DNA of 64,000 bases from a virus (IMGVR_UViG_3300027586_000002:32001-96000); one strand, 5' to 3'. Positions 28,847 through 64,000 are shown, numbered from the stretch's first letter. Notes: generated by a model from the letters alone, not told the origin. Numbers and translations are program-made.

Positions 28847-29065
28847 ATGAATAAAGACGCGATCGTAAATGGATTTGTTAAAAGAGCAGCTGAACGCTGT
28901 GATGGTTTTCAGTTTAAACATGAGACCGCTGCCGAAATTATAAAGCAAGCTGGCTGGTGGGATAAGATGTCTAACCAAGGCTGTGTTACCAACAAGGTAG
29001 ACAAGAAATCTAATCGCAAACCTTTCAAGAACAGTTACTACGACAGCGCTAACAAGAATCTATAA
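28847..29065 (+). CDS. small protein carrying the 'MNKDAIVNGFVKRAA' tag
   Basis: Same N-terminal motif as 54.5-64 kb array; TTGATT-N17-TTAAAT promoter just upstream. Confidence 0.6.
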   Translation: MNKDAIVNGFVKRAAERCDGFQFKHETAAEIIKQAGWWDKMSNQGCVTNKVDKKSNRKPFKNSYYDSANKNL

Positions 29066-54043: not shown

Positions 54044-54526
54044 TCAGGGTTTCCACTTATTTATAACGTCAGGATCTTTGTAAGCCCTCTTTATAAGTCT
54101 GTTCTCTATGAGAAGACTAGTCTGAGGATCATGTGTATCGTCCAAGGCATGACTAAGCTCATGAGCATAGATACAACCAAATCTAAAATAAGTCCATGGC
54201 TTGTCAGTTATAATAAAGGAATCATCTATAAGTATATAAGTACCTTTGTTCTTACTATAGACTGTCATACCAGAGAACTCTTTAGAGTGCATCCAGAACA
54301 AAGGAATATCTTCGTATCCTGTATACTTAATGTCAGGAGCTAATATATTTATTAAAGCCAGGCTGCGATAAGCCTTGGCAGTTTCCTCCGGAGTAAACGC
54401 TGCAGTAACCTTAATATACCTGTCGCCTAATCCTTGCACATCTAAGTGTTCCTTATATAGATAAGTAGTGCAGTTAGTTACAACCAAACTAACAAGCAAT
54501 ATTATAAATAGGTGGACACGCTTCAT
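54044..54526 (-). CDS. lipoprotein zinc metalloprotease-like
   Basis: VVTN/C lipobox, AHELSH (HExxH). Confidence 0.65.
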   Translation of the reverse strand: MKRVHLFIILLVSLVVTNCTTYLYKEHLDVQGLGDRYIKVTAAFTPEETAKAYRSLALINILAPDIKYTGYEDIPLFWMHSKEFSGMTVYSKNKGTYILIDDSFIITDKPWTYFRFGCIYAHELSHALDDTHDPQTSLLIENRLIKRAYKDPDVINKWKP

Positions 54527-54532
54527 TATAAC

Positions 54533-55483
54533 TTACATAAAAGATGCGGACGGTTTGTTTAAATCTTTAAAATAATTTGTTCTTTGAACATTAATATATG
54601 GCCCACGGTTTATCCAATTAGTTCCATCTTGGGTGTAATGATGGACTGGCTTAGCATAAGGTCGATCAATGTTGCCCATTATTGTGTCTAATCGGCTTGG
54701 TAAATGCCTTTTATTTACCTCTAAAAATGTTTGTCTGATATCTTTGGCATTCTGCCCTTTTCCTTCAGCAAATAAATTAACACTTCCAGGAGGAGTTATA
54801 TTAATATTTGTAGCGTTTGGAAAGTACTTGTGAACTAACTCTGGTGTACATCCTCCACCCAAATTACATGCTCCACTATAAAAGTTATGTATATTATTAG
54901 TAGCAGGTCCTATTTTTTTTGCTATATCTTCAAGATTAAAAAGTGTATCTGGATTTTTAATACTTGAAAGTAAACTACTATTAATTGATTTAGATATTTC
55001 TGGGTCCGGTTGATAATTAAAGTCTCCTACACCGCCACCACCATGAGCATTTACGATCAAACTGTTATTCCCAAGCCCATTATCTATTCTTATATTACTA
55101 GAGTAACTTGGTTGATATTTATTCCAACTATTATAACTTGCATCAGGTATACCATTAAATAACCATTTATTTTTACTTGGGTTGCCCATTGGTTTTAGGA
55201 AATTATCTATTTCATTTATACCTTTGTTTTCGCCGCCGAACCAATTTTTAGCTGTATCTTTTATGTGAGATAATCCATTTTGTACATTTGATATAAAAGA
55301 TGGTCCTGTTTGGATGGGTTTGTCTCTTAATAACCTAGTATCGTTATGCTCAATTTTAAGCCCAGTATTCATCCTCTGCATCATTGCACCAGGAGGTATG
55401 AGAGCTGGCTTTGCTGAAGGTATAGAGTTTATAACTTCATCAGCTCTCTTCTTAAAGCCTCTTATAACAGCTTCTTGGTTCAT
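54533..55483 (-). CDS. tagged protein with caspase-like (clan CD) His/Cys domain
   Basis: MNQEAVIRGFKKRA; LIVNAHGGG...FYSGACN..GC. Confidence 0.6.
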   Translation of the reverse strand: MNQEAVIRGFKKRADEVINSIPSAKPALIPPGAMMQRMNTGLKIEHNDTRLLRDKPIQTGPSFISNVQNGLSHIKDTAKNWFGGENKGINEIDNFLKPMGNPSKNKWLFNGIPDASYNSWNKYQPSYSSNIRIDNGLGNNSLIVNAHGGGGVGDFNYQPDPEISKSINSSLLSSIKNPDTLFNLEDIAKKIGPATNNIHNFYSGACNLGGGCTPELVHKYFPNATNINITPPGSVNLFAEGKGQNAKDIRQTFLEVNKRHLPSRLDTIMGNIDRPYAKPVHHYTQDGTNWINRGPYINVQRTNYFKDLNKPSASFM

Positions 55484-55507
55484 ATTAAAACTGTTTGTAT
55501 ACTGTTA

Positions 55508-56209
55508 TTAACAATTCCATTTACTTAAAGCTAACGATTTTCTAGTAGGCCTTCCCTTTTCATCTTTCATTGGACCAGGCATTCCGCTCATTCTTGCACA
55601 GAAAGACTTTCTTCTTTTTGCTGATTTTGAATCAGGGTCTAATTTTGATGGCTCCGTAGTAACAGCCATTTGAAGTTTAGACCCAGGGTTTTCTGCGCGA
55701 TACGATGCTACGCCTTTAGCGTTTAACCCACCTGCTGGATTTTTGCCTTCTGAACGTTGCCAAGCCGCAGATGCTTGCTTATCTGATTCTTTTTCATTCT
55801 TTTTACCTACAGGACGACAAGAGCCAGGAGTCAACGCCTTAGTATTAGGTACGCGTTGGTATCCGCTCCAACACTTAGCTTGCTTCTCTGATATCGCGGT
55901 TACTTTGTTCCAGTTCTTAGCATCGGGGTAGTCTTTGTCTCCAGGCTTTGCTGTAGCTTCCCCTCGTTGCTTTTTAGCTCTAATGTTTGCCCACAAGCCG
56001 GGCTTTTCATCTGTTCCGCGCCCTAGTTTATTAAGCTCTTCAGCTCGCTTATAAAACCCTCTTAGCATTGCTTCTTTAGACACAGCAGGTAATCCATCAT
56101 AGTCATAGCCTTTAATGTATTTTTCATCATAGAAGTCATAACCATATGCTTCTTTATTAAGCTCTTCGGCTCGCTTATAAAACCCTCTTAGTATTGCTTC
56201 TTTGTTCAT
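55508..56209 (-). CDS. tagged modular protein with DUF6321-like C-terminal domain
   Basis: Tag twice; KPGLWANI; KCW.GY...GSC; AAWQR.EGKNP.GGLN...RRKSFCARM.G...W.C. Confidence 0.7.
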   Translation of the reverse strand: MNKEAILRGFYKRAEELNKEAYGYDFYDEKYIKGYDYDGLPAVSKEAMLRGFYKRAEELNKLGRGTDEKPGLWANIRAKKQRGEATAKPGDKDYPDAKNWNKVTAISEKQAKCWSGYQRVPNTKALTPGSCRPVGKKNEKESDKQASAAWQRSEGKNPAGGLNAKGVASYRAENPGSKLQMAVTTEPSKLDPDSKSAKRRKSFCARMSGMPGPMKDEKGRPTRKSLALSKWNC

Positions 56210-56210
56210 A

Positions 56211-56549
56211 TTAAAACTGTTTGTTAAATCCCAATCTTGCTGGTAGTTTATCTGCAGAAATACTAGGGTTTACCGGAAGAGGCACTGGAGTTTGTTGACT
56301 ATATGCGGGGTGAGGAGCCTGCCCTAACCCAGCTAACAATTTAGCTCGGTCCAGCACCATCGCAAGTGGATTTATCCCTGGCATTTTGATTGGAAGATCA
56401 GGGGCAACGTATGGTTTGTCTTTCCCTACTTGGAATAACGGATTTATTCCTGGCATAACTAGACCACCAGCTTCACCTGCCCACTTTAGCCTTTCAGCTG
56501 CTCGCTTATAAAACCCTCTTAGTATTGCTTCTTTGTTCATATTATTCAT
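56211..56549 (-). CDS. tagged Pro-rich small protein
   Basis: MNKEAILRGFYKRAA; MPGINPL x2; ends RLGFNKQF. Confidence 0.6.
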   Translation of the reverse strand: MNNMNKEAILRGFYKRAAERLKWAGEAGGLVMPGINPLFQVGKDKPYVAPDLPIKMPGINPLAMVLDRAKLLAGLGQAPHPAYSQQTPVPLPVNPSISADKLPARLGFNKQF

Positions 56550-56550
56550 A

Positions 56551-57711
56551 TTAAAACTGTTTGTTAAATCCCAATCTTACATTGTTCTTACCAAAACTAG
56601 CTCTTGGAGAGGCTTTTCCTACAAGCGGAATACCTACATCTGTCTTCTTCTTAAAGTTCTGAAAGAAGCTTGCCGTGCCCTTAGACTTAGAAGTAGGAGC
56701 AACGGCAACGGCAGGCTTTATTGAAGCCATCGTTGCTGGGCCTACGTTGGCTTCTACGGGGTTATTACAGGCTCCCCCGCCACAGACGTCAATATCAGGT
56801 TCTACGTATGGAGCAGCGATAGATGACATAGCCAAACTAGGAGCTGGCTGTTGCCCTGATATAGTAGCAACATTACGCATTGTCTCCCTACGTATCGCTG
56901 CTTGTATGCTATCTGCTGCAAAGTTAGAACTTGGCTGTGGATTGTTAAGCTCGGATTTGAATCTATCCATGAATGAACCCTGCATCAATTGATTGGCTTG
57001 TTCTTCTGATTTCTTAAACAACTTATGCTTTATAGCAAAATCCTGCATGTCTTTGACTGTCTTGAAACTATCTGGCGTTCGTCCGCGCGCAGCATACCAT
57101 CGTTTGTTATTCTGATTGCCTATTCCTTCAAGAGCAATGCTCATTTCTATATCGTCTAGTTCATCTGTTCCTATATGTTTTCTAAAATTGCTAGTTAATT
57201 TAACATGTTGTGGTTGAACACCTAATTGTTGGTGAATTAACCTGGCCAGAGCTGGATGTACTCCTTTTTGTATGCCTTTATGATTAAATGGATCTTCATA
57301 AGACGATGGAGGATAATTGTATTCTGGTTCAACTTTAGCTTGTGGAAACATTGACCATGCGTTCTTATTCATACTTTTAGGATAGTGAGTATACAAAGTT
57401 CTATTCTTTGTGTCGGCATATATTTTAGCAAGCTCTTGCAACAGCTTTTTATTTTTTGCGTCTTTTAAAGTAAAATAGCGAGGGTTATTACCTTCTTGTT
57501 TATGTACATCAGTATTATAATAGTTTTCTGTTTGAAAATGTACTGGCTTCTTGCTTACTTTGAAATGTTGTTGCAATGCCTTTGTAAAACTAGATGAATC
57601 GACACTGCCCGCGCCAGCGTAACCTCCCTTGACTCCTGTTTGTAATCCTAAATATGGATCGCTATGATAATCTCCTTTATCATCTGACCATGAGTATGCA
57701 TTCTTATTCAT
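56551..57711 (-). CDS. modular protein with internal acyl-carrier-protein-like domain
   Basis: MNKNA twice; LIHQQLGV....V...SNF...IGTDELDDIEMSIALE...FKTVKD. Confidence 0.6.
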   Translation of the reverse strand: MNKNAYSWSDDKGDYHSDPYLGLQTGVKGGYAGAGSVDSSSFTKALQQHFKVSKKPVHFQTENYYNTDVHKQEGNNPRYFTLKDAKNKKLLQELAKIYADTKNRTLYTHYPKSMNKNAWSMFPQAKVEPEYNYPPSSYEDPFNHKGIQKGVHPALARLIHQQLGVQPQHVKLTSNFRKHIGTDELDDIEMSIALEGIGNQNNKRWYAARGRTPDSFKTVKDMQDFAIKHKLFKKSEEQANQLMQGSFMDRFKSELNNPQPSSNFAADSIQAAIRRETMRNVATISGQQPAPSLAMSSIAAPYVEPDIDVCGGGACNNPVEANVGPATMASIKPAVAVAPTSKSKGTASFFQNFKKKTDVGIPLVGKASPRASFGKNNVRLGFNKQF

Positions 57712-57712
57712 A

Positions 57713-60541
57713 TTATTTAAGTGCTGGTTGACTTGCGTTAGGAGCCATTTGGAATGCTTCGTGGAACAAGTTGCTTACTCCAGCGTTTGCCGGATTGGTA
57801 AACACATGTGGAAGTAAACGTTCTCCTGTGCTTTCAGGTTTAGTTAAAGCTTTATTAAAGTTTAATATTGTCTCTCCAGGTCCCTTAGGATTCTTAAGCC
57901 CGTCTGTTAATGTTTTCTTTAACCCTGTAAAGGCATCATTATTACCCCAACTTGTATAATTAGTCTTAAGCTGGTTCTCATTATTAAACACTCCCTGCCT
58001 AGTAGTAGGAGTTGTTAAACTATATTGTTTAGTAGGAGCAGCTTGAAGAAATTGTAATATCTTTGTTTGTATATGTTCAGGAGCATTCATTGCATTAGTT
58101 AGCCCTGTCATAAAATCAGGATGCATCATTCCAGGTATAGGCTCTAGTGGAGGTATAGCCTTTAGTGGAGGTATAGGCTTTAGTGGAGGTAGTACATCCG
58201 CTGCACGTTTATTAAACCCTCTTAGTATTGCCTCCTTGTTCATGTTATTTTCTAGATCCTTCTTTCTTTTCTTATTCCAGTAATAAAGCCCAGCTAATCC
58301 TCCAGCAGCAGCCAAGCCAATTCCTACTGGTATACTTACTGACGTAGGAATAACAGGCCTTATTTCAGCGGTATGGCTTGGAGCATTTCTCCCAGTTAAA
58401 TGAGCTTCTCTGACAAACTCTTCTTTAGTTGGAATTAACCACGGTTGTTTCTGTGTGATAGCAAAACTCCTAGCAGCATTAGCTGTATCTGTTGTGGATA
58501 TGTGTCCTGGAGTACCATAAGTCCTTCTTGGCACATTTGATAATGGTGATTTACCTATGATCTTATCAATACACGCACCATCTCCGTTACAACCTATTAC
58601 TTCTAAAAGACTAGGTTTCTTGCCTGTATAGTTTTTTAATATATCACTTAGCAGAGTGCTTTCATCGCCAGCAGCCCCGCCGCCTAGACTATAGTTGTCA
58701 GTCTTTCCACCTCCGTGACCCATTAGTGACAATATACCATTTGGAATGTTTTTTCGAAATGTGAAGTCGCCGGCTATATCCTGATTCTGATAATCTGAAT
58801 ACATCTTGAACGCGCTCTCGCGCTCGCGGGGGGCGTGAAAGTCCAAAAATGATGTGTCATTATTCGGACGAAGCCCGAGGTTGTAGGAATGGTCATTTAT
58901 AACTGTTTTTGCTTCTTTGTTCATACTTCCTTTATTGATCCAAGCTTTAATGGCCGATATAACTTTAGGATCTTTAGCTTTTGATAAATAATCCTGTACG
59001 TTCATTTCGCCTACATTCTCTTCACCCAAGAACTCATACTCAGGAATTGCATCTACATCCCGCTTACGCATCTTATATGTTCTTAATGGTTTAACTGGCT
59101 TATCGCTTACATACTCAGACGAAGTGATTGTCTGACCTAATTCTTTGTCTTCTCTGGTAATCTTTTTAAAATGACTGGCAGGAAAAACGTGCATATATCC
59201 ATTAGGAGTATGCCCTAAAAGAAGTTTTCTACCAGTGCTTGGATCTATTAATCGGTGGTACACTGAGTTCTTTATCTTCTCCTTCATTGCAAGGTATTCT
59301 GGTGTAGGAGTATTTGTAAATGCAGAAGAGGGTTTGTCTGCAGCATAAGCCACTTGATCACCATACTCATATCCATAATTATACTTTTGATTAAACTTGG
59401 GGTCCAATACATCTAACTTTTGCGCAGATCCATGGTATAAGTATTTGCGATTCTTTATATCTTCTATACTCTTAATTATCATCTCTGGATAACCTGCGCG
59501 AAGAGCTGCTTTCTTAAACATATTGTTATTTAATATCTCGTTGTAGCTCTGAGGCTTATATCTATCTTTCTTCAAGTCTCTTATTGTATCATTGGCTTCT
59601 GCATAATCAGATCGTAAATCAAATATAGATCTAGGATGCTGACCTGATATCTGTGACCTTATATAACCCTGTATTGAAGAACGCAAAGGTCCACGGTCTA
59701 GTAACATCTTATTAGCTGTTGGTATCTTAAGAACATGATCAGCTTCAGTATGATGACCACCAAGAACTATGTTGTCATTACCTTGTATATACTTATCCAT
59801 TAGCTCTTGTCTCTTACCAGCAAGCAAAGCCAGCATCTCATCATTGTAATCTTTCTTTCTAATATGCTTGTAACCCAAGTCTTTCTCGCCCTGCTCATCG
59901 AACTCATCTAGATCCTTAGTATTAAGATGAGGATACTTGGCTTTAAGAGCTTCAAGTAAATGCGTCTTACCTGCGCCCGATGCTCCTCCTATATGAGCTA
60001 GTACGTTGCCTGATTGCTTCATCAAATTTGCGTAACCAGTATTACCATGAGGAGATATGACTTCAATCCTAGGGTTTATGGTCATTCCCATATACTTCGA
60101 CTTGCCCAATATCTTCTTATGCTTATCCCAACGAGCAATAGCGTCATCATATCCGGCCTGTCCCAATTGTGGTCCGTCTGGATGTAATAACTTATCCGGT
60201 AACCCGACTACATCAAACAATGTACGCTTAAGATCTTCGTCATTTATATTAAAGTTATGTTGATAATAACCTTTGCCTGGATTGAACTTCTCTCTTCCAG
60301 GTATAGTAGAGTAAAGAAATGATTGATCATCAGGAACATTAACACCTATGGCTTTAAGCTTGTCTCTATATACTTGCTCTGTCTTTTTTCTACCTTCTAC
60401 ATATTTAGAAGCTAACTCAGGCTTATTCTCCCATCTACCGTTAGTACGATCCTTAAGCAACTCAGCATATAACAATGTCCTCAAAGCATCGTGTTTGATA
60501 CGAGCATAGTGAACTGATTGTATATCTGACTGCTTGTGCAT
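57713..60541 (-). CDS. polyprotein-like: unknown + P-loop kinase + ADP-ribosyltransferase-like + caspase-like + TM + tagged module (ORF opens at 60559)
   Basis: GASGAGKT; LYHGS...AYA...EY.S.KPV.P; MGHGGG...IGCN..AC; junctions KQS/KQS/KKA/KEA/KEA..KRAA. Confidence 0.7.
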   Translation of the reverse strand: MHKQSDIQSVHYARIKHDALRTLLYAELLKDRTNGRWENKPELASKYVEGRKKTEQVYRDKLKAIGVNVPDDQSFLYSTIPGREKFNPGKGYYQHNFNINDEDLKRTLFDVVGLPDKLLHPDGPQLGQAGYDDAIARWDKHKKILGKSKYMGMTINPRIEVISPHGNTGYANLMKQSGNVLAHIGGASGAGKTHLLEALKAKYPHLNTKDLDEFDEQGEKDLGYKHIRKKDYNDEMLALLAGKRQELMDKYIQGNDNIVLGGHHTEADHVLKIPTANKMLLDRGPLRSSIQGYIRSQISGQHPRSIFDLRSDYAEANDTIRDLKKDRYKPQSYNEILNNNMFKKAALRAGYPEMIIKSIEDIKNRKYLYHGSAQKLDVLDPKFNQKYNYGYEYGDQVAYAADKPSSAFTNTPTPEYLAMKEKIKNSVYHRLIDPSTGRKLLLGHTPNGYMHVFPASHFKKITREDKELGQTITSSEYVSDKPVKPLRTYKMRKRDVDAIPEYEFLGEENVGEMNVQDYLSKAKDPKVISAIKAWINKGSMNKEAKTVINDHSYNLGLRPNNDTSFLDFHAPRERESAFKMYSDYQNQDIAGDFTFRKNIPNGILSLMGHGGGKTDNYSLGGGAAGDESTLLSDILKNYTGKKPSLLEVIGCNGDGACIDKIIGKSPLSNVPRRTYGTPGHISTTDTANAARSFAITQKQPWLIPTKEEFVREAHLTGRNAPSHTAEIRPVIPTSVSIPVGIGLAAAGGLAGLYYWNKKRKKDLENNMNKEAILRGFNKRAADVLPPLKPIPPLKAIPPLEPIPGMMHPDFMTGLTNAMNAPEHIQTKILQFLQAAPTKQYSLTTPTTRQGVFNNENQLKTNYTSWGNNDAFTGLKKTLTDGLKNPKGPGETILNFNKALTKPESTGERLLPHVFTNPANAGVSNLFHEAFQMAPNASQPALK

Positions 60542-60542
60542 G

Positions 60543-60980
60543 TTATTGCCCTGCAACATTAGCCTTCTTGTTTAAGTAATCAATGATAACTTGATTATCT
60601 GCTAGTTGTTCCTTTAACCCGACAACCTCAGCTTCATAGTCTTTAACCTGGGTTTTAAGAATATCGATTTCATCCTGCATATCATTCAATCTTGCATTGC
60701 AGTCCTGTCTTTTAATTGTTTCTTGGTCAAGCCTTACACTTAGCTCATCCAAACGTTTGCCTAGATCCGTAGCTGATTTTTTCCAGAATTCTGCCATATC
60801 TATTTCTCCTTCTATTCTAGTTTTATCTGCTAATGAAATGTCTTTCTTTGATTCAGCGTCGTCTTTTCTCTTTGACAACAGTTTTATAATTATAGGTGCA
60901 AGTCCTGCACCTCCTAATAATATCAGAAATATGTCTTTAATGAAAATAAATGTTTGATCGTCAGCTCCTGGTAGTGTCAT
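60543..60980 (-). CDS. single-TM coiled-coil protein (holin/spanin-like topology)
   Basis: IFLILLGGAGLAPIII then long heptads. Confidence 0.55.
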   Translation of the reverse strand: MTLPGADDQTFIFIKDIFLILLGGAGLAPIIIKLLSKRKDDAESKKDISLADKTRIEGEIDMAEFWKKSATDLGKRLDELSVRLDQETIKRQDCNARLNDMQDEIDILKTQVKDYEAEVVGLKEQLADNQVIIDYLNKKANVAGQ

Positions 60981-60984
60981 ATGT

Positions 60985-61932
60985 TTATTTATTGTATCCT
61001 TTAAATAGATTAGTTGTCCATTGTCCGTTGGTTCCCTTTAAATACTGAATTGGGTTATTATAAACGCCCGGCAGAAATCCCTTATCACCACCGGAGTGAC
61101 GCCTTCCAAGCCCAATAGATGGTATATCACCACCGTAACCAAGCCTACCTTGAGGAGTGGCAACCATATTGGTCATGTTAGGAAAGTTTTCAGTTATTTC
61201 TTTTGTAGGAGCACAGCCTCTTTCTTGATTGCAAGTACTGAAGAATAAATTATGTACATTTGTAGCTTTATCTCCAATTGCCTTTCTTAAATCAGGCATA
61301 GAGAAGCCATCAACCTTGTTTAATGTTGAAAAATTATTTTTTCCAATTGCAGTTGAATCAAGACTTAATTCATATTCACCTGGCCTGCCACCACCATGAC
61401 TATCAACTAATAGAGAATTAAATGGATTTTTAGCTAAAAAACCTTTATTCAAATCTGGTCTAGCATTTGTGCGTTTTATAAAATTTGTTAAGGCTGGAAT
61501 CTCGAGCCCTCTGCCTCCACCGTAACCAATCCCTCTTAAATCTCCCTCTAAAATCATAGAAGAATTGATATTAGAATTAGCTCCATGATATATATAAGGA
61601 GCTAATTTATTACTATTGTTATTAACATTATTTTTAATTTTATCAATTGTATGATTAAAATAAAGATCTTCTTGAGCTTTAGATGAATCAAACATTTTAT
61701 CCATCATGTTTACACGATATGTTGAGTAATGCGGAACTCCTTCTGTAGGCTTTAGTATATTGTCATATCTTGTATCTGAATTCATGTGCTTTTTCAAAAC
61801 ACCCATATTAATATCATTAGCAGTATTATTGCTTATGCTGCTTATTGGTTTTATTGTTGGATGATTAGGATTTAATGGTATAAAGTCGGCTGCTCTCTTC
61901 ATAAACCCTCTTAATATAGCCTCAACGTTCAT
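60985..61932 (-). CDS. tagged caspase-like His/Cys domain protein
   Basis: MNVEAILRGFMKRAA; LLVDSHGGG...FFSTCN..GC. Confidence 0.6.
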   Translation of the reverse strand: MNVEAILRGFMKRAADFIPLNPNHPTIKPISSISNNTANDINMGVLKKHMNSDTRYDNILKPTEGVPHYSTYRVNMMDKMFDSSKAQEDLYFNHTIDKIKNNVNNNSNKLAPYIYHGANSNINSSMILEGDLRGIGYGGGRGLEIPALTNFIKRTNARPDLNKGFLAKNPFNSLLVDSHGGGRPGEYELSLDSTAIGKNNFSTLNKVDGFSMPDLRKAIGDKATNVHNLFFSTCNQERGCAPTKEITENFPNMTNMVATPQGRLGYGGDIPSIGLGRRHSGGDKGFLPGVYNNPIQYLKGTNGQWTTNLFKGYNK

Positions 61933-61935
61933 AGG

Positions 61936-63201
61936 TTATCGATTAAAAATTTTATCTTTTAAGTTATCCAGCATTAGTTGTTGAAGCTCTTCTTTTTCTT
62001 TTATAAAAGAAGCTATAGAACCTGTAGGCCTGGACATGTTAGCCATTACTTTGTCCTTGTAAGATGTATATGGATTTGTGTTAACAGCTTTGATCTTGTC
62101 TAAGTAATTATTTCCTTTGCCTAACTCTTGTCCTATCTCTCCAGCTTCCCCAGCCATTTGGGCTATTAAATTTGCAGCAACCAAAGGAGGCACACCAGTA
62201 AATCCCGCCGCCACCGCCGCCAGTGCCTCAGGAAGACCAACTCGTCTAGCGTCTGTATAAACACCATCATTTAACCAAGATTTTTGAGCAGTAGGATCAG
62301 AACCAGGGATAAGGTTGTATTCGTGTGGAGCGGCGATTGGTAGCTTAAGCTTGTTTAAAGTATCAGTTAATATTGGAGATGAGTCACCTATAGTCCAAGA
62401 ATAATTACCAGGCGGGGCCATAATAACCTTATTAACATTTATTTTAAAGTCTTTAGGTGTAGAGTACGTTGTTGGAGTATAAATATTTTTGAATGGATAA
62501 TCTCTATTTGTAATTGGGTCTTGATTATGTATTATTTCATTTTTTCCTTTATCAGTCAATAAACCATCTCCATATTGATGTCGTCCATTTACAGTAGTAT
62601 TTAATTGTTTAATAAACTTGGCATACATGTCTGGAGTACAACCATCTGTGTTAGGATTGCAGCCTAATGCTTTAATTATACTTGGATTTTTATCTTGTAA
62701 CTCTGAAGTTAAATGTTGGTTAGTTAACAATTTAGAATTGTATAGACCTTCGTCATCATTCCCACCCTCGTTTTTAATACCAGTAAACTGGCTAATATTT
62801 TTTCCTATATTTTCTGGCCTACGCTTTGGTTCGTGTATAAGTGATTCTGTTTTACCTCCCCATGGAGCACCAGAGTGAACAACGTCGGGTATGCTAAGAT
62901 CATAGTATGCTCCTTTATTTTCTTTAGAATAAGGATTACTTAGATTATAGTTATTTCTATCTCCGATACCATGTGCGTCCATATTTAATATTGACCCATT
63001 TGGGTTAATCGGAAATTTTGCGTTTCCTGAGAAGTAAGGTAAATTTATACGGCTGTTATTTAACAAGTTTAGACTACCAGGCTGGTATATTCCTTTACCT
63101 AAATTAGTAATGTTAGGCTGTGGTTTAGACACAGGTATAGGAGGGCGCTCAACATCAGCCGCTCGCTTATAGAAACCTCTTATAATAGCCTCAACGTTCA
63201 T
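61936..63201 (-). CDS. tagged caspase-like His/Cys domain protein
   Basis: MNVEAIIRGFYKRAA; LNMDAHGIG...ALGCN...GC; hydrophobic Ala-rich helix near C-end. Confidence 0.6.
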   Translation of the reverse strand: MNVEAIIRGFYKRAADVERPPIPVSKPQPNITNLGKGIYQPGSLNLLNNSRINLPYFSGNAKFPINPNGSILNMDAHGIGDRNNYNLSNPYSKENKGAYYDLSIPDVVHSGAPWGGKTESLIHEPKRRPENIGKNISQFTGIKNEGGNDDEGLYNSKLLTNQHLTSELQDKNPSIIKALGCNPNTDGCTPDMYAKFIKQLNTTVNGRHQYGDGLLTDKGKNEIIHNQDPITNRDYPFKNIYTPTTYSTPKDFKINVNKVIMAPPGNYSWTIGDSSPILTDTLNKLKLPIAAPHEYNLIPGSDPTAQKSWLNDGVYTDARRVGLPEALAAVAAGFTGVPPLVAANLIAQMAGEAGEIGQELGKGNNYLDKIKAVNTNPYTSYKDKVMANMSRPTGSIASFIKEKEELQQLMLDNLKDKIFNR

Positions 63202-63204
63202 TGG

Positions 63205-64000
63205 TTATTTATTGTATCCTTTAAACGTGTTAGTTGACCAATTCCCATTTGTACCTTTTAGATATTGAACTGGCCTTGTACCAATACCCATTGGATTAAT
63301 CATACTCATACCAAATGGTCGTGACTTACCAGCTCCAATTGAGAGTAAATCATTAACAACTCCAAATCTTCCTTGAGGAGAGGCAACCATATTAGTCATG
63401 TTAGGAAAAGCTTTGGTAAATTCTTCAGTAGGTGCTCCGCCGCCACGCTGGTTGCAAGTACTAAGATATAAATTATGAACGTTTGTTGCCTTATCTCCTA
63501 TAGTTTTTTTTAAATCGTCTACATTAAAATGTACATTAGGTGTAGGAAAATCATTTTTTCCTATGGATGACTTATCAATTCCAACAGAATAGTAGTTGGG
63601 TTCTCCGCCCCCATGCATATTAACTAAAAATGAATTAGATGGATTTTTATTTAAAAAGTCTAGCAGTAATGGTCGTTTATTATACCTAAGATCTCCTTCT
63701 AATATCATCGAGGAGTTCATATTAGAGTTTGCTCCATGATAAACGAATGGTGATAGTTCTGTAGGTTTGTTATTTGATATTTCATTAACTATTTTAGAAA
63801 CTTCTGGTAGCTTGAAAAACTTATATGTATCCATATCTAAGTGCTTATTAATAATGGGTTCAAGCTTTTTGTCCATGATTTGATTATAGCTAGAAACAAG
63901 GTCAAAATGCTGGTCTGAAGCAGGAGGGACATCTGGAGTTTTTGTATTTAAGAAAGGATGTCTAGGATTTAACGGAAGATCCGCCGCCCTCTTCATAAAC
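63205..64000 (-). CDS. tagged caspase-like His/Cys domain protein, close paralogue of 60985 (5'-partial)
   Basis: Window ends in ...FMKRAA; LVNMHGGG...YLSTCN; shared HGANSN.NSSMILEGDLR and FKGYNK*. Confidence 0.6.
   Translation of the reverse strand, partial: FMKRAADLPLNPRHPFLNTKTPDVPPASDQHFDLVSSYNQIMDKKLEPIINKHLDMDTYKFFKLPEVSKIVNEISNNKPTELSPFVYHGANSNMNSSMILEGDLRYNKRPLLLDFLNKNPSNSFLVNMHGGGEPNYYSVGIDKSSIGKNDFPTPNVHFNVDDLKKTIGDKATNVHNLYLSTCNQRGGGAPTEEFTKAFPNMTNMVASPQGRFGVVNDLLSIGAGKSRPFGMSMINPMGIGTRPVQYLKGTNGNWSTNTFKGYNK

Follow-up and report, generated by a model that had tools for sequence, protein, structure and literature searches.

Prohead proteases cut at short motifs, L/I-x-E in T4 and S/A-x-E in phiKZ, and the cysteine protease domains of MARTX and large clostridial toxins (clan CD, C80) release effector modules. 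In T4, the internal proteins IPI, IPII and IPIII and the protein Alt carry a capsid-targeting sequence (CTS) that is removed by the prohead protease gp21; a 10-residue CTS suffices for head loading, and Asp in place of the Glu of L/I-x-E blocks cutting (PMC9026906). Polyvalent proteins, as set out in the text of Iyer, Burroughs, Anand, de Souza and Aravind (2017), occur in terminase-bearing phages and conjugative elements, are predicted to be packaged and injected with the DNA, and include peptidase domains proposed to process them (PMC5512222). A conserved junction peptide appears not to be described in that article's text, where the words "linker" and "amphipathic" occur 0 times.

We analyzed a 64,000-nucleotide stretch (the window) from a 106.9-kb, 52%-complete record of an uncultured large phage, in which a short peptide, here called the tag, stands at the start or at the module joints of a dozen adjacent protease-like and enzyme-like genes. 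The tag probably sends all the proteins that bear it to a single partner, which may be the virus particle. As with the T4 CTS, proteins of a variable locus that are mostly basic and have little else in common start with one short peptide, and T-even relatives have different cargos behind a CTS-like start. Compared by eye rather than by alignment, however, the tag has no evident similarity to MKTYQEFIAE, and in place of a final L/I-x-E it reads A-x-E or A-x-D at positions 14–16, with five copies of each. Unlike the CTS, it also occurs internally and leaves tag-like remnants at some gene ends, and it is attached to large enzyme-like domains, the longest carrier being a multi-module protein of 948 residues. 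No gp21-like (S77) protease gene was found: PF03420 had no match in the 52%-complete record, which has no head genes.

The locus resembles polyvalent proteins in bringing kinase-like, ADP-ribosyltransferase (ART)-like, NUDIX, GNAT-like and peptidase domains together in one polypeptide, with at least two domains of disparate activity in each of g948, P0012 and P0020. It departs from them in having this module set largely split into separate genes, with each module marked by a conserved 16-residue peptide, and in an embedded peptidase that is not so much zincin as caspase-like. The clan-CD-like His/Cys domain within a multi-module protein recalls MARTX and clostridial toxins, but those are secreted by bacteria whereas the present locus belongs to a phage, the domain has six paralogous stand-alone copies, its activity is only putative, and its structural matches to C80 are weak (Z 3.6–3.9). 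Polymorphic toxins, including MuF-fused phage head toxins, share the plan of a constant N-terminal address and variable C-terminal payloads with recombination between them; their address is a folded domain of ~300 residues, whereas that of the phage is a 16-residue peptide, and Pfam and PHROG scans of the array proteins gave no match to MuF.

The tagged operon and its peptide

The array comprises 12 abutting minus-strand genes with TAA stops and spacers of 1–6 nt, one junction being 24 nt. Listed by rising coordinate, with a distant tagged reading frame last, the features are as follows.

54044–54526, minus: g160, the block's last gene; untagged, lipoprotein-like (signal peptide with Cys), HELSH
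54533–55483, minus: g316; tag at 55436–55483, Pro-rich linker, caspase-like His-Gly/Cys domain
55508–56209, minus: g233; tags at 56162–56209 and 56036–56083, then a basic GLWANIRAKK / DUF6321 module
56211–56549, minus: g112; MNN, tag at 56493–56540, Pro-rich 90-residue body, end RLGFNKQF
56551–57711, minus: g386; decayed tag MNKNAYSW at the start, MNKNAWSM at residue 114, end RLGFNKQF
57713–60559, minus: g948; polyvalent-type protein of five modules, A–E
60543–60980, minus: g145; no tag, acidic, N-terminal TM helix and coiled coil
60985–61932, minus: g315; tag at 61885–61932, caspase-like domain, end FKGYNK
61936–63201, minus: g421; tag at 63154–63201, divergent caspase-like domain, Gly/Ala-rich hydrophobic segment
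63205–64000, continuing to 64026 past the window, minus: g273; tag, caspase-like domain, end FKGYNK
Upstream of g273, outside the window: g235 (235 residues); tag, caspase-like domain
Upstream, outside the window: g490; DUF3008-like start, variant tag, HExxH zincin-like domain, Gly-rich C terminus
28847–29065, plus: 72-residue reading frame distant from the array; variant tag MNKDAIVNGFVKRAAE at 28847–28894

The repeated peptide MN(K/V/Q)EA(I/V)(I/L)RGFxKRA is real. A profile search of the 106.9-kb record returned 10 copies, all at E ≤ 2e-11, with no other match up to E = 10; an eleventh, variant copy (NLKVALYKGFMKRAVS) lies beyond the window inside g490, the operon's first gene. Every copy listed in the original prediction exists, the positions given there being the low coordinates of minus-strand genes whose tags lie at the high ends. 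This includes the copy inside g948 (58196–58243), the distant one near 28847, whose reading frame has an orthologue in a relative (P0022), and the start of g273 that had been called probable, which reads MNVEAIIRGFMKRAAD just past the window edge. DNA said to be shared at three gene starts, ACAAACAGTTTTAATATG, has exactly 3 occurrences where 0.03 would be expected, and the two endings said to be common to several genes, RLGFNKQF* and FKGYNK*, are likewise present.

The 16-residue, helix-prone consensus, MNxEA(I/V)(I/L)RGFxKRA(A/E/D)(D/E), is followed by a Pro-rich linker, and an AlphaFold model has the tag as a helix over residues 3–16 and then disorder. A5, G9, F10, K12, R13 and A14 are invariant and yet are encoded by 2–4 codons each, which shows that the peptide, not the DNA, is under selection; codon differences between copies number 236 synonymous versus 193 non-synonymous. 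Helical hydrophobic moments of the tags range from 0.23 to 0.51, each tag's own value being reached by 13%–48% of its shuffles, and amphipathic-helix models (microcompartment encapsulation peptides, MinD-type anchors) were rejected because the moment is not above that of shuffles. A RiPP-type leader was rejected since the cargos are folded domains of 50–900 residues.

One short N-terminal peptide is common to proteins of a variable locus that are otherwise unrelated or ~25% identical. Among the array's modules, caspase-like clan-CD domains number six; the others are a zincin-like peptidase, P-loop kinase-like, ART-like and DUF6321 modules and small membrane peptides; in Pfam and PHROGs scans its proteins matched DUF6321 and otherwise gave weak matches only. 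Ten of 11 array proteins have pI > 8.5 versus 39% of other genes (Fisher p = 0.001, with paralogues that are not independent). Shine-Dalgarno sequences are absent from the array genes and present in 24 of the record's 131 genes. Read-through of stop codons into a single polyprotein was rejected, because the junction stops are all TAA, which is also the commonest stop genome-wide (94/131). Promoter and terminator scans gave the same counts as shuffles and are therefore uninformative.

Module exchange at the tag

The largest array protein, g948, looks like a polyvalent effector protein. Its module borders were mapped by comparison with the relatives P0012 and P0011, as follows (minus strand).

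60032–60541: module A, no domain assigned
59525–60031: module B, P-loop kinase-like
59489–59521: decayed tag between modules B and C
58940–59488: module C, ART-like, a lead only
58895–58924: partial tag between modules C and D
58355–58894: module D, caspase-like HG/C
58280–58351: TM segment, then KKRKK
58196–58243: intact internal tag, after the TM segment
57716–58195: module E, no domain assigned

The kinase-like and ART-like labels rest on scores below threshold, and a PDB sequence search with g948 gave no match. The kinase-like module is free-standing in the relative L028 (P0011, 78% identical), and in its place P0012 has a NUDIX domain (35.7 bits against a Pfam cut-off of 21.1) and a GNAT-like motif. 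P0023 joins caspase-like domain, TM segment and tag to a DUF6321 module behind them, and P0020, with SNF2 and helicase C domains, has three tag motifs that separate SNF2, ParB-like and zincin regions. The stretch between the two tags of g233 is the remainder of a module that P0014 still has. That the same modules are combined differently in relatives from metagenomes shows shuffling at the tag. These comparisons demonstrate that the tag is the joint at which modules have been exchanged, fused, split and lost among relatives.

Neighboring genes tell the same story in their DNA. The tags of g235 and g421 are identical at 48 of 48 nucleotides ahead of cargos that are barely alignable (25% identity over 68 residues), and those of g112 and g233 at 44 of 48 ahead of unrelated cargos, demonstrating homogenization of the tag DNA between genes through recombination. 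The earlier view of the locus as modular and recombining is upheld by both lines of comparison. A number of the internal tags are intact yet lack a start codon (NNINKEA in P0023, FKKVAILRGF in P0011, PAFWRGF in P0020), so that internal motifs are not merely alternative starts, and tag-like remnants occur at C-terminal gene ends (RLGFNKQF; GFFWRGFEKSAHGRG). FKKAA, MNKEA (residue 546) and MNKNA, which had been proposed as junctions, are better read as decayed tags, FKKAA because a relative has an intact tag at that place.

Among 1.84 billion representative proteins, some 20 are true carriers, with the tag N-terminal in most and differing cargos: zincin-like (P0031, P0007), caspase-like (P0026), TM peptides (P0021, P0017) or no assigned domain (P0027, P0034, P0035). 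The tag profile also drew in false positives, a TPR protein and the precursor of a neuropeptide. In high-GC phage contigs there is a distant version, (K)EAF(F/W)RGFEKxA, which indicates that the peptide outlasts a full change of DNA composition. No close relative was found in IMG/VR by paralogue, flanking lipoprotein or tag pattern; L037/G001 (23% complete, terminase 55% identical) has no tag; 50,697 phage records gave no match to the array DNA (megablast) or to g315 (tblastn); and the tag pattern gave just chance-like single matches in 185,579 species genomes.

Caspase-like domains and possible cutting at the joint

The six caspase-like (clan CD) domains of the locus carry a His-Gly and then a Cys; H, G, G and C-N are invariant in 10 paralogues and orthologues. 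In an AlphaFold model of low confidence (pLDDT 55, pTM 0.63), strands 87–94 and 142–148 terminate at the His-Gly and Cys residues, and each of these follows directly on a hydrophobic strand, as in clan CD. With this low-confidence model, the best Foldseek match is weak (E = 0.02), and VIA Z is at most 5.5 in a repeated comparison and 5.0 in the unbiased search (rmsd ~4.8 over ~141 residues). Clan CD nonetheless accounts for ~35 of the top 50 structural matches among 48,161 chains. The structural matches also include C80 domains. A model of g948 domain D was unusable (pLDDT 39). HExxH motifs occur in g490, P0007, P0031 and P0020, where the sole Pfam zincin match, Zn_peptidase_2 in P0020, falls below threshold (18.6 bits against 27). 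The caspase-like family, in six copies, is phage-specific, and its members are candidate host take-over or counter-defense enzymes.

A rival reading makes the tag a processing junction, at which the locus's caspase-like or zincin peptidases would cut multi-module precursors (for instance at dibasic K-R|A), freeing effectors as the MARTX cysteine protease domain does and leaving the motif in stand-alone genes as a leftover or a trans-cutting site. The motif does lie at internal borders of g948, P0012, P0023, P0011, g490, P0006 and P0020, where three copies part its domains; the P0023 copy is intact despite having no Met, and remnants end some genes. Peptidase-like domains dominate the locus, with His-Gly and Cys invariant in 10 sequences and top structural matches nearly all in clan CD, and zincin-mediated processing is the model in the text on polyvalent proteins (PMC5512222). 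Yet most copies start at Met1 with nothing upstream to free, the motif is predicted to be helical rather than extended, decayed borders cannot all remain substrates, and the peptidase roles are putative. The cleavage rule first proposed fares no better: K-x-A/S, taken as the junction signal, is at chance level in the array (49 occurrences versus 47.1 ± 6.1 in shuffles of 4032 residues), and release by cleavage after it has no statistical support. We consider a processing junction rather unlikely, while noting its compatibility with docking, since in T4 the CTS serves in targeting and is cleaved as well.

A proposed common docking partner

The reading we prefer, tentatively, is that of a hypervariable effector locus whose tag is a docking address to one partner, most likely a virion precursor. 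The locus would in effect be a polyvalent protein partly split into genes, and its tag would gather the tagged proteins at a common partner, such as the head core or the tail or baseplate, from where they would enter the next host together with the DNA, as T4 CTS cargos do and polyvalent proteins are proposed to do. Loading into the head is suggested by analogy. The tag may also be cut, and the sequence yields no cutting rule. Peptidases and kinase-like, NUDIX and ART-like modules make up a content like that of polyvalent proteins, but internal tags after a TM helix and tag-like gene-end remnants are not predicted by a purely N-terminal loading signal.

The genomic setting speaks for the virion only indirectly. 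In a high-GC phage, tag genes lie directly downstream of baseplate wedge genes, and the DUF6321 module has homologues that are flanked by the scaffold and capsid genes in pelagiphage Eistla and by gp16 and gp17 in a cyanomyovirus. The 52%-complete, 106.9-kb record itself has no capsid, scaffold, portal, prohead-protease, head or tail gene, and its terminase is not T4-like (best cultured match Salmonella phage Arash, 29%). The array sits between nucleotide-metabolism genes rather than in a structural module, and the gene beside it, which is transcribed divergently, encodes a secreted trypsin-like protease; exported proteases flank it in both relatives, and a g160 counterpart also adjoins it in L028. 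Such surroundings would suit docking to a non-virion partner in the infected cell (the inner membrane, a host chaperone or protease, or a phage-made scaffold) that would collect take-over or counter-defense enzymes at one place. A TM or Gly-rich hydrophobic segment lies beside the tag in g948, P0021, P0017, P0011, P0015 and P0039, so that a membrane site of action would fit too, and a J-domain protein of the high-GC array has the motif at its end. The tag is not measurably amphipathic, however, which is against a generic in-plane membrane anchor, its invariant small residues A5, G9 and A14 point to a specific protein contact, and the high-GC tag genes come after baseplate genes; we regard an intracellular partner as unlikely.

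Bolder, and improbable, is a self-assembling, self-processing arsenal in which the tag would be a universal joint combining helix docking with caspase-like cutting at dibasic K-R|A, its modules encoded either together in a single polyvalent protein or gene by gene. Phages would then have their own equivalent of MARTX-type toxins. That the tag is functionless, a by-product of tandem duplication and a conserved start region for re-initiation without Shine-Dalgarno sites, is already disfavored and very improbable: most junction spacers are 1–6 nt, 15–18 nt are conserved ahead of three starts, just 24 of 131 phage genes have a Shine-Dalgarno sequence and four carriers are tandem paralogues, but the residues stay fixed while synonymous codons vary freely, and the tag stands on unrelated cargos, at internal sites without a start codon and in phages of very different GC content.

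The ART-like module, like the caspase-like family, is a candidate host take-over or counter-defense enzyme. Should the self-processing arsenal prove correct, it would give a sequence rule for predicting injected effectors from genomes. If, as we prefer, the tag serves as the address by which proteins are loaded into virions or brought to a common assembly, it would provide a sequence handle to the effectors that uncultured large phages beyond the T4 group deliver, and recombination at this short, conserved joint would be how polyvalent proteins are put together and dismantled.

A basic, tag-bearing gene array

We identified twelve abutting genes on the minus strand of the record, running from position 98,213 down to 86,044, each of which ends in TAA and is separated from the next by 1–6 nt, with one exception of 24 nt. 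We name them by protein length in amino acids (g948, g233 and so on; g235 and g490 lie beyond the window). Seven of the twelve begin with the peptide MN(K/V/Q)EA(I/V)(I/L)RGFxKRA, hereafter the tag, with the protein part that it accompanies termed the cargo. Additional copies occur 42 residues inward from the first in g233, at residues 773–788 of g948 (intact) and, as the variant NLKVALYKGFMKRAVS, behind the DUF3008-like start of the first array gene, g490. One more variant is found elsewhere in the window:

28847, plus strand: 72-aa ORF containing the tag variant MNKDAIVNGFVKRAAE

A tag profile search of the record returned ten places at E ≤ 2e-11 and no further match up to E = 10. The junction DNA and gene ends that the original prediction described as common to several array genes are indeed present in the sequence.

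The array proteins are predominantly basic, with pI > 8.5 in 10 of 11 versus 39% of other genes. Two further features lie within the array:

60543–60980, minus strand: g145, its sole acidic, untagged gene, encoding an N-terminal transmembrane helix and a coiled coil
58133–58191: three tandem 18-nt repeats encoding (I)PPL(K/E)P units, directly behind the internal g948 tag

The homologue of g145 in L028, a related locus on a 135.6-kb contig, lies at a different location on the opposite strand, and the repeat stretch of g948 corresponds to 20 residues absent from its orthologue P0012.

Searching 1.84 billion representative proteins with HMMER yielded 28 matches, about 20 of them true carriers, all from uncultured material and most with the tag at the N-terminus. 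Within IMG/VR the tag was found in this record alone; 185,579 species genomes gave chance-like matches only, and cultured phages gave no match to the array DNA or to g315.

Module exchange at a conserved peptide

Comparisons within the array and with metagenomic relatives show a conserved peptide on many cargos, with modules exchanged at the tag. All 48 tag bases agree between g235 and g421, whose cargos are 25% identical over 68 residues; g112 and g233 have 44/48 tag bases in common and unrelated cargos. L028 keeps the flanking genes and has only three tag-bearing genes, with contents different from those of our array. One encodes a stand-alone kinase-like protein tagged close to the C-terminus; the products of the other two are a 54-aa peptide and a HELGH protein of 449 residues. 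The 1029-aa P0012 has 92% of its first 170 residues and 69% of its last 400 in common with g948, and carries NUDIX and other modules, including a GNAT-like motif, where g948 has its kinase-like and ADP-ribosyltransferase-like modules. The FKKAALRAGY site of g948 is an intact tag in the relative P0011, and P0023 fuses a caspase-like domain, a transmembrane segment and a tag, in which Ile replaces Met, to the DUF6321 module of g233. By comparison with P0014, the g233 stretch between its two tags is the remainder of a deleted module.

Judged from codon usage, selection acts on the tag peptide: A5, G9, F10, K12, R13 and A14 are invariant, yet 2–4 codons are used for each. In an AlphaFold model, tag residues 3–16 are helical and lead into a disordered Pro-rich linker; the helix has no measurable amphipathicity. 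A related motif, (K)EAF(F/W)RGFEKxA, recurs on high-GC phage contigs, where it is N-terminal, interdomain or, in one case, C-terminal; the genes that carry it directly follow baseplate wedge genes. The 967-aa P0020 combines SNF2 helicase, ParB-like and zincin-like parts; its start and borders bear three AFWRGFxKQA motifs. One high-GC tag array also includes:

L011 286–879, minus strand: 197-aa J-domain protein (HPD motif) with the C-terminus GFFWRGFEKSAHGRG

Cargo domains and genomic surroundings

In six domains (of g235, g273, g421, g315, g316 and g948 module D), predicted strands are followed by invariant His-Gly and Cys-Asn; these domains are probably caspase-like in predicted fold. The structural model is of low confidence (pLDDT 55, pTM 0.63), and its top matches in three structure searches are almost only clan CD peptidases, including CHAT, Craspase, Raptor, caspases, MALT1, metacaspase, separase, C11, gingipain and C80 toxin domains, at weak scores (Foldseek E ≥ 0.02; Z ≤ 5.5 in a re-look and ≤ 5.0 in an unbiased search). 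Module B of g948 resembles P-loop kinases in a below-threshold match; module C, nearest in the Atlas to Arr, PARP and RES-type ADP-ribosyltransferases (0.87), offers a lead only to such an activity. The C-terminal end of g233 is DUF6321 (E = 4e-23).

The 106,940-bp IMG/VR record, 52% complete by CheckV, encodes a DNA polymerase, DnaB-like helicase, UvsX-like recombinase, SbcCD, RNA ligase, thymidylate kinase and, identified by eye, a class II-like ribonucleotide reductase. Its large terminase has Salmonella phage Arash as best cultured match (29%); capsid, scaffold, portal, tail and prohead-protease genes were not found in this 52% of the genome. A Shine-Dalgarno sequence precedes 24 of its 131 genes, and upstream regions are G-poor. 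Together with a strong bias across the record to T at −1 and A at −3 and with TAA at 72% of stops, this scarcity suggests that the host initiates translation independently of Shine-Dalgarno pairing.

The array lies among nucleotide-metabolism genes and is flanked by:

L008 2326–3243, plus strand (record 98,326–99,243, just outside the window): trypsin-like serine protease of 305 aa that carries a signal peptide (Pfam Trypsin_2, E = 3e-14), its gene transcribed divergently to the tag operon with 113 bp between the two
54044–54526, minus strand: g160, last gene of the block, a 160-aa lipoprotein-like protein with a signal peptide ending at Cys and a HELSH zinc motif

In L028 the protease orthologue is one gene from the array, and a nearly identical lipoprotein is also nearby.

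Possible roles of the tag

We infer that the tag would act as an address that docks its cargos to a single shared partner. Processing at the tag is compatible with docking, but we consider a processing junction unlikely as its role. The K-x-A/S cleavage rule originally proposed for module borders did not hold up, with 49 occurrences against 47 ± 6 in shuffles, the level of chance. Nor does the tag follow the T4 end rule: half of the copies read A-x-E and the other half A-x-D, and Asp at that place blocks cutting in T4 (PMC9026906).

The nucleotide-metabolism surroundings and the secreted-protease and HExxH-lipoprotein flanks count, indirectly, against a virion role. We consider a dock inside the cell about as unlikely as a processing junction.

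The reading we favour, tentatively, is that the common partner would be a virion precursor, because of the T4 precedent, polyvalent-protein logic and the basic, enzyme-rich cargo. Two pieces of virion-side context bear on it indirectly: the position of the high-GC tag genes after baseplate wedge genes, and small, very basic proteins of two phages that are homologous to the DUF6321 module and have GLYANIHAKRKR and DUF6321 motifs:

L034 8888–9393: Pelagibacter phage Eistla (T7-like pelagiphage), between scaffold and capsid genes
L035 3992–4417: Synechococcus phage ACG-2014e (cyanomyovirus), between small (gp16) and large (gp17) terminase genes

These proteins may be unrecognised DNA-associated head proteins.
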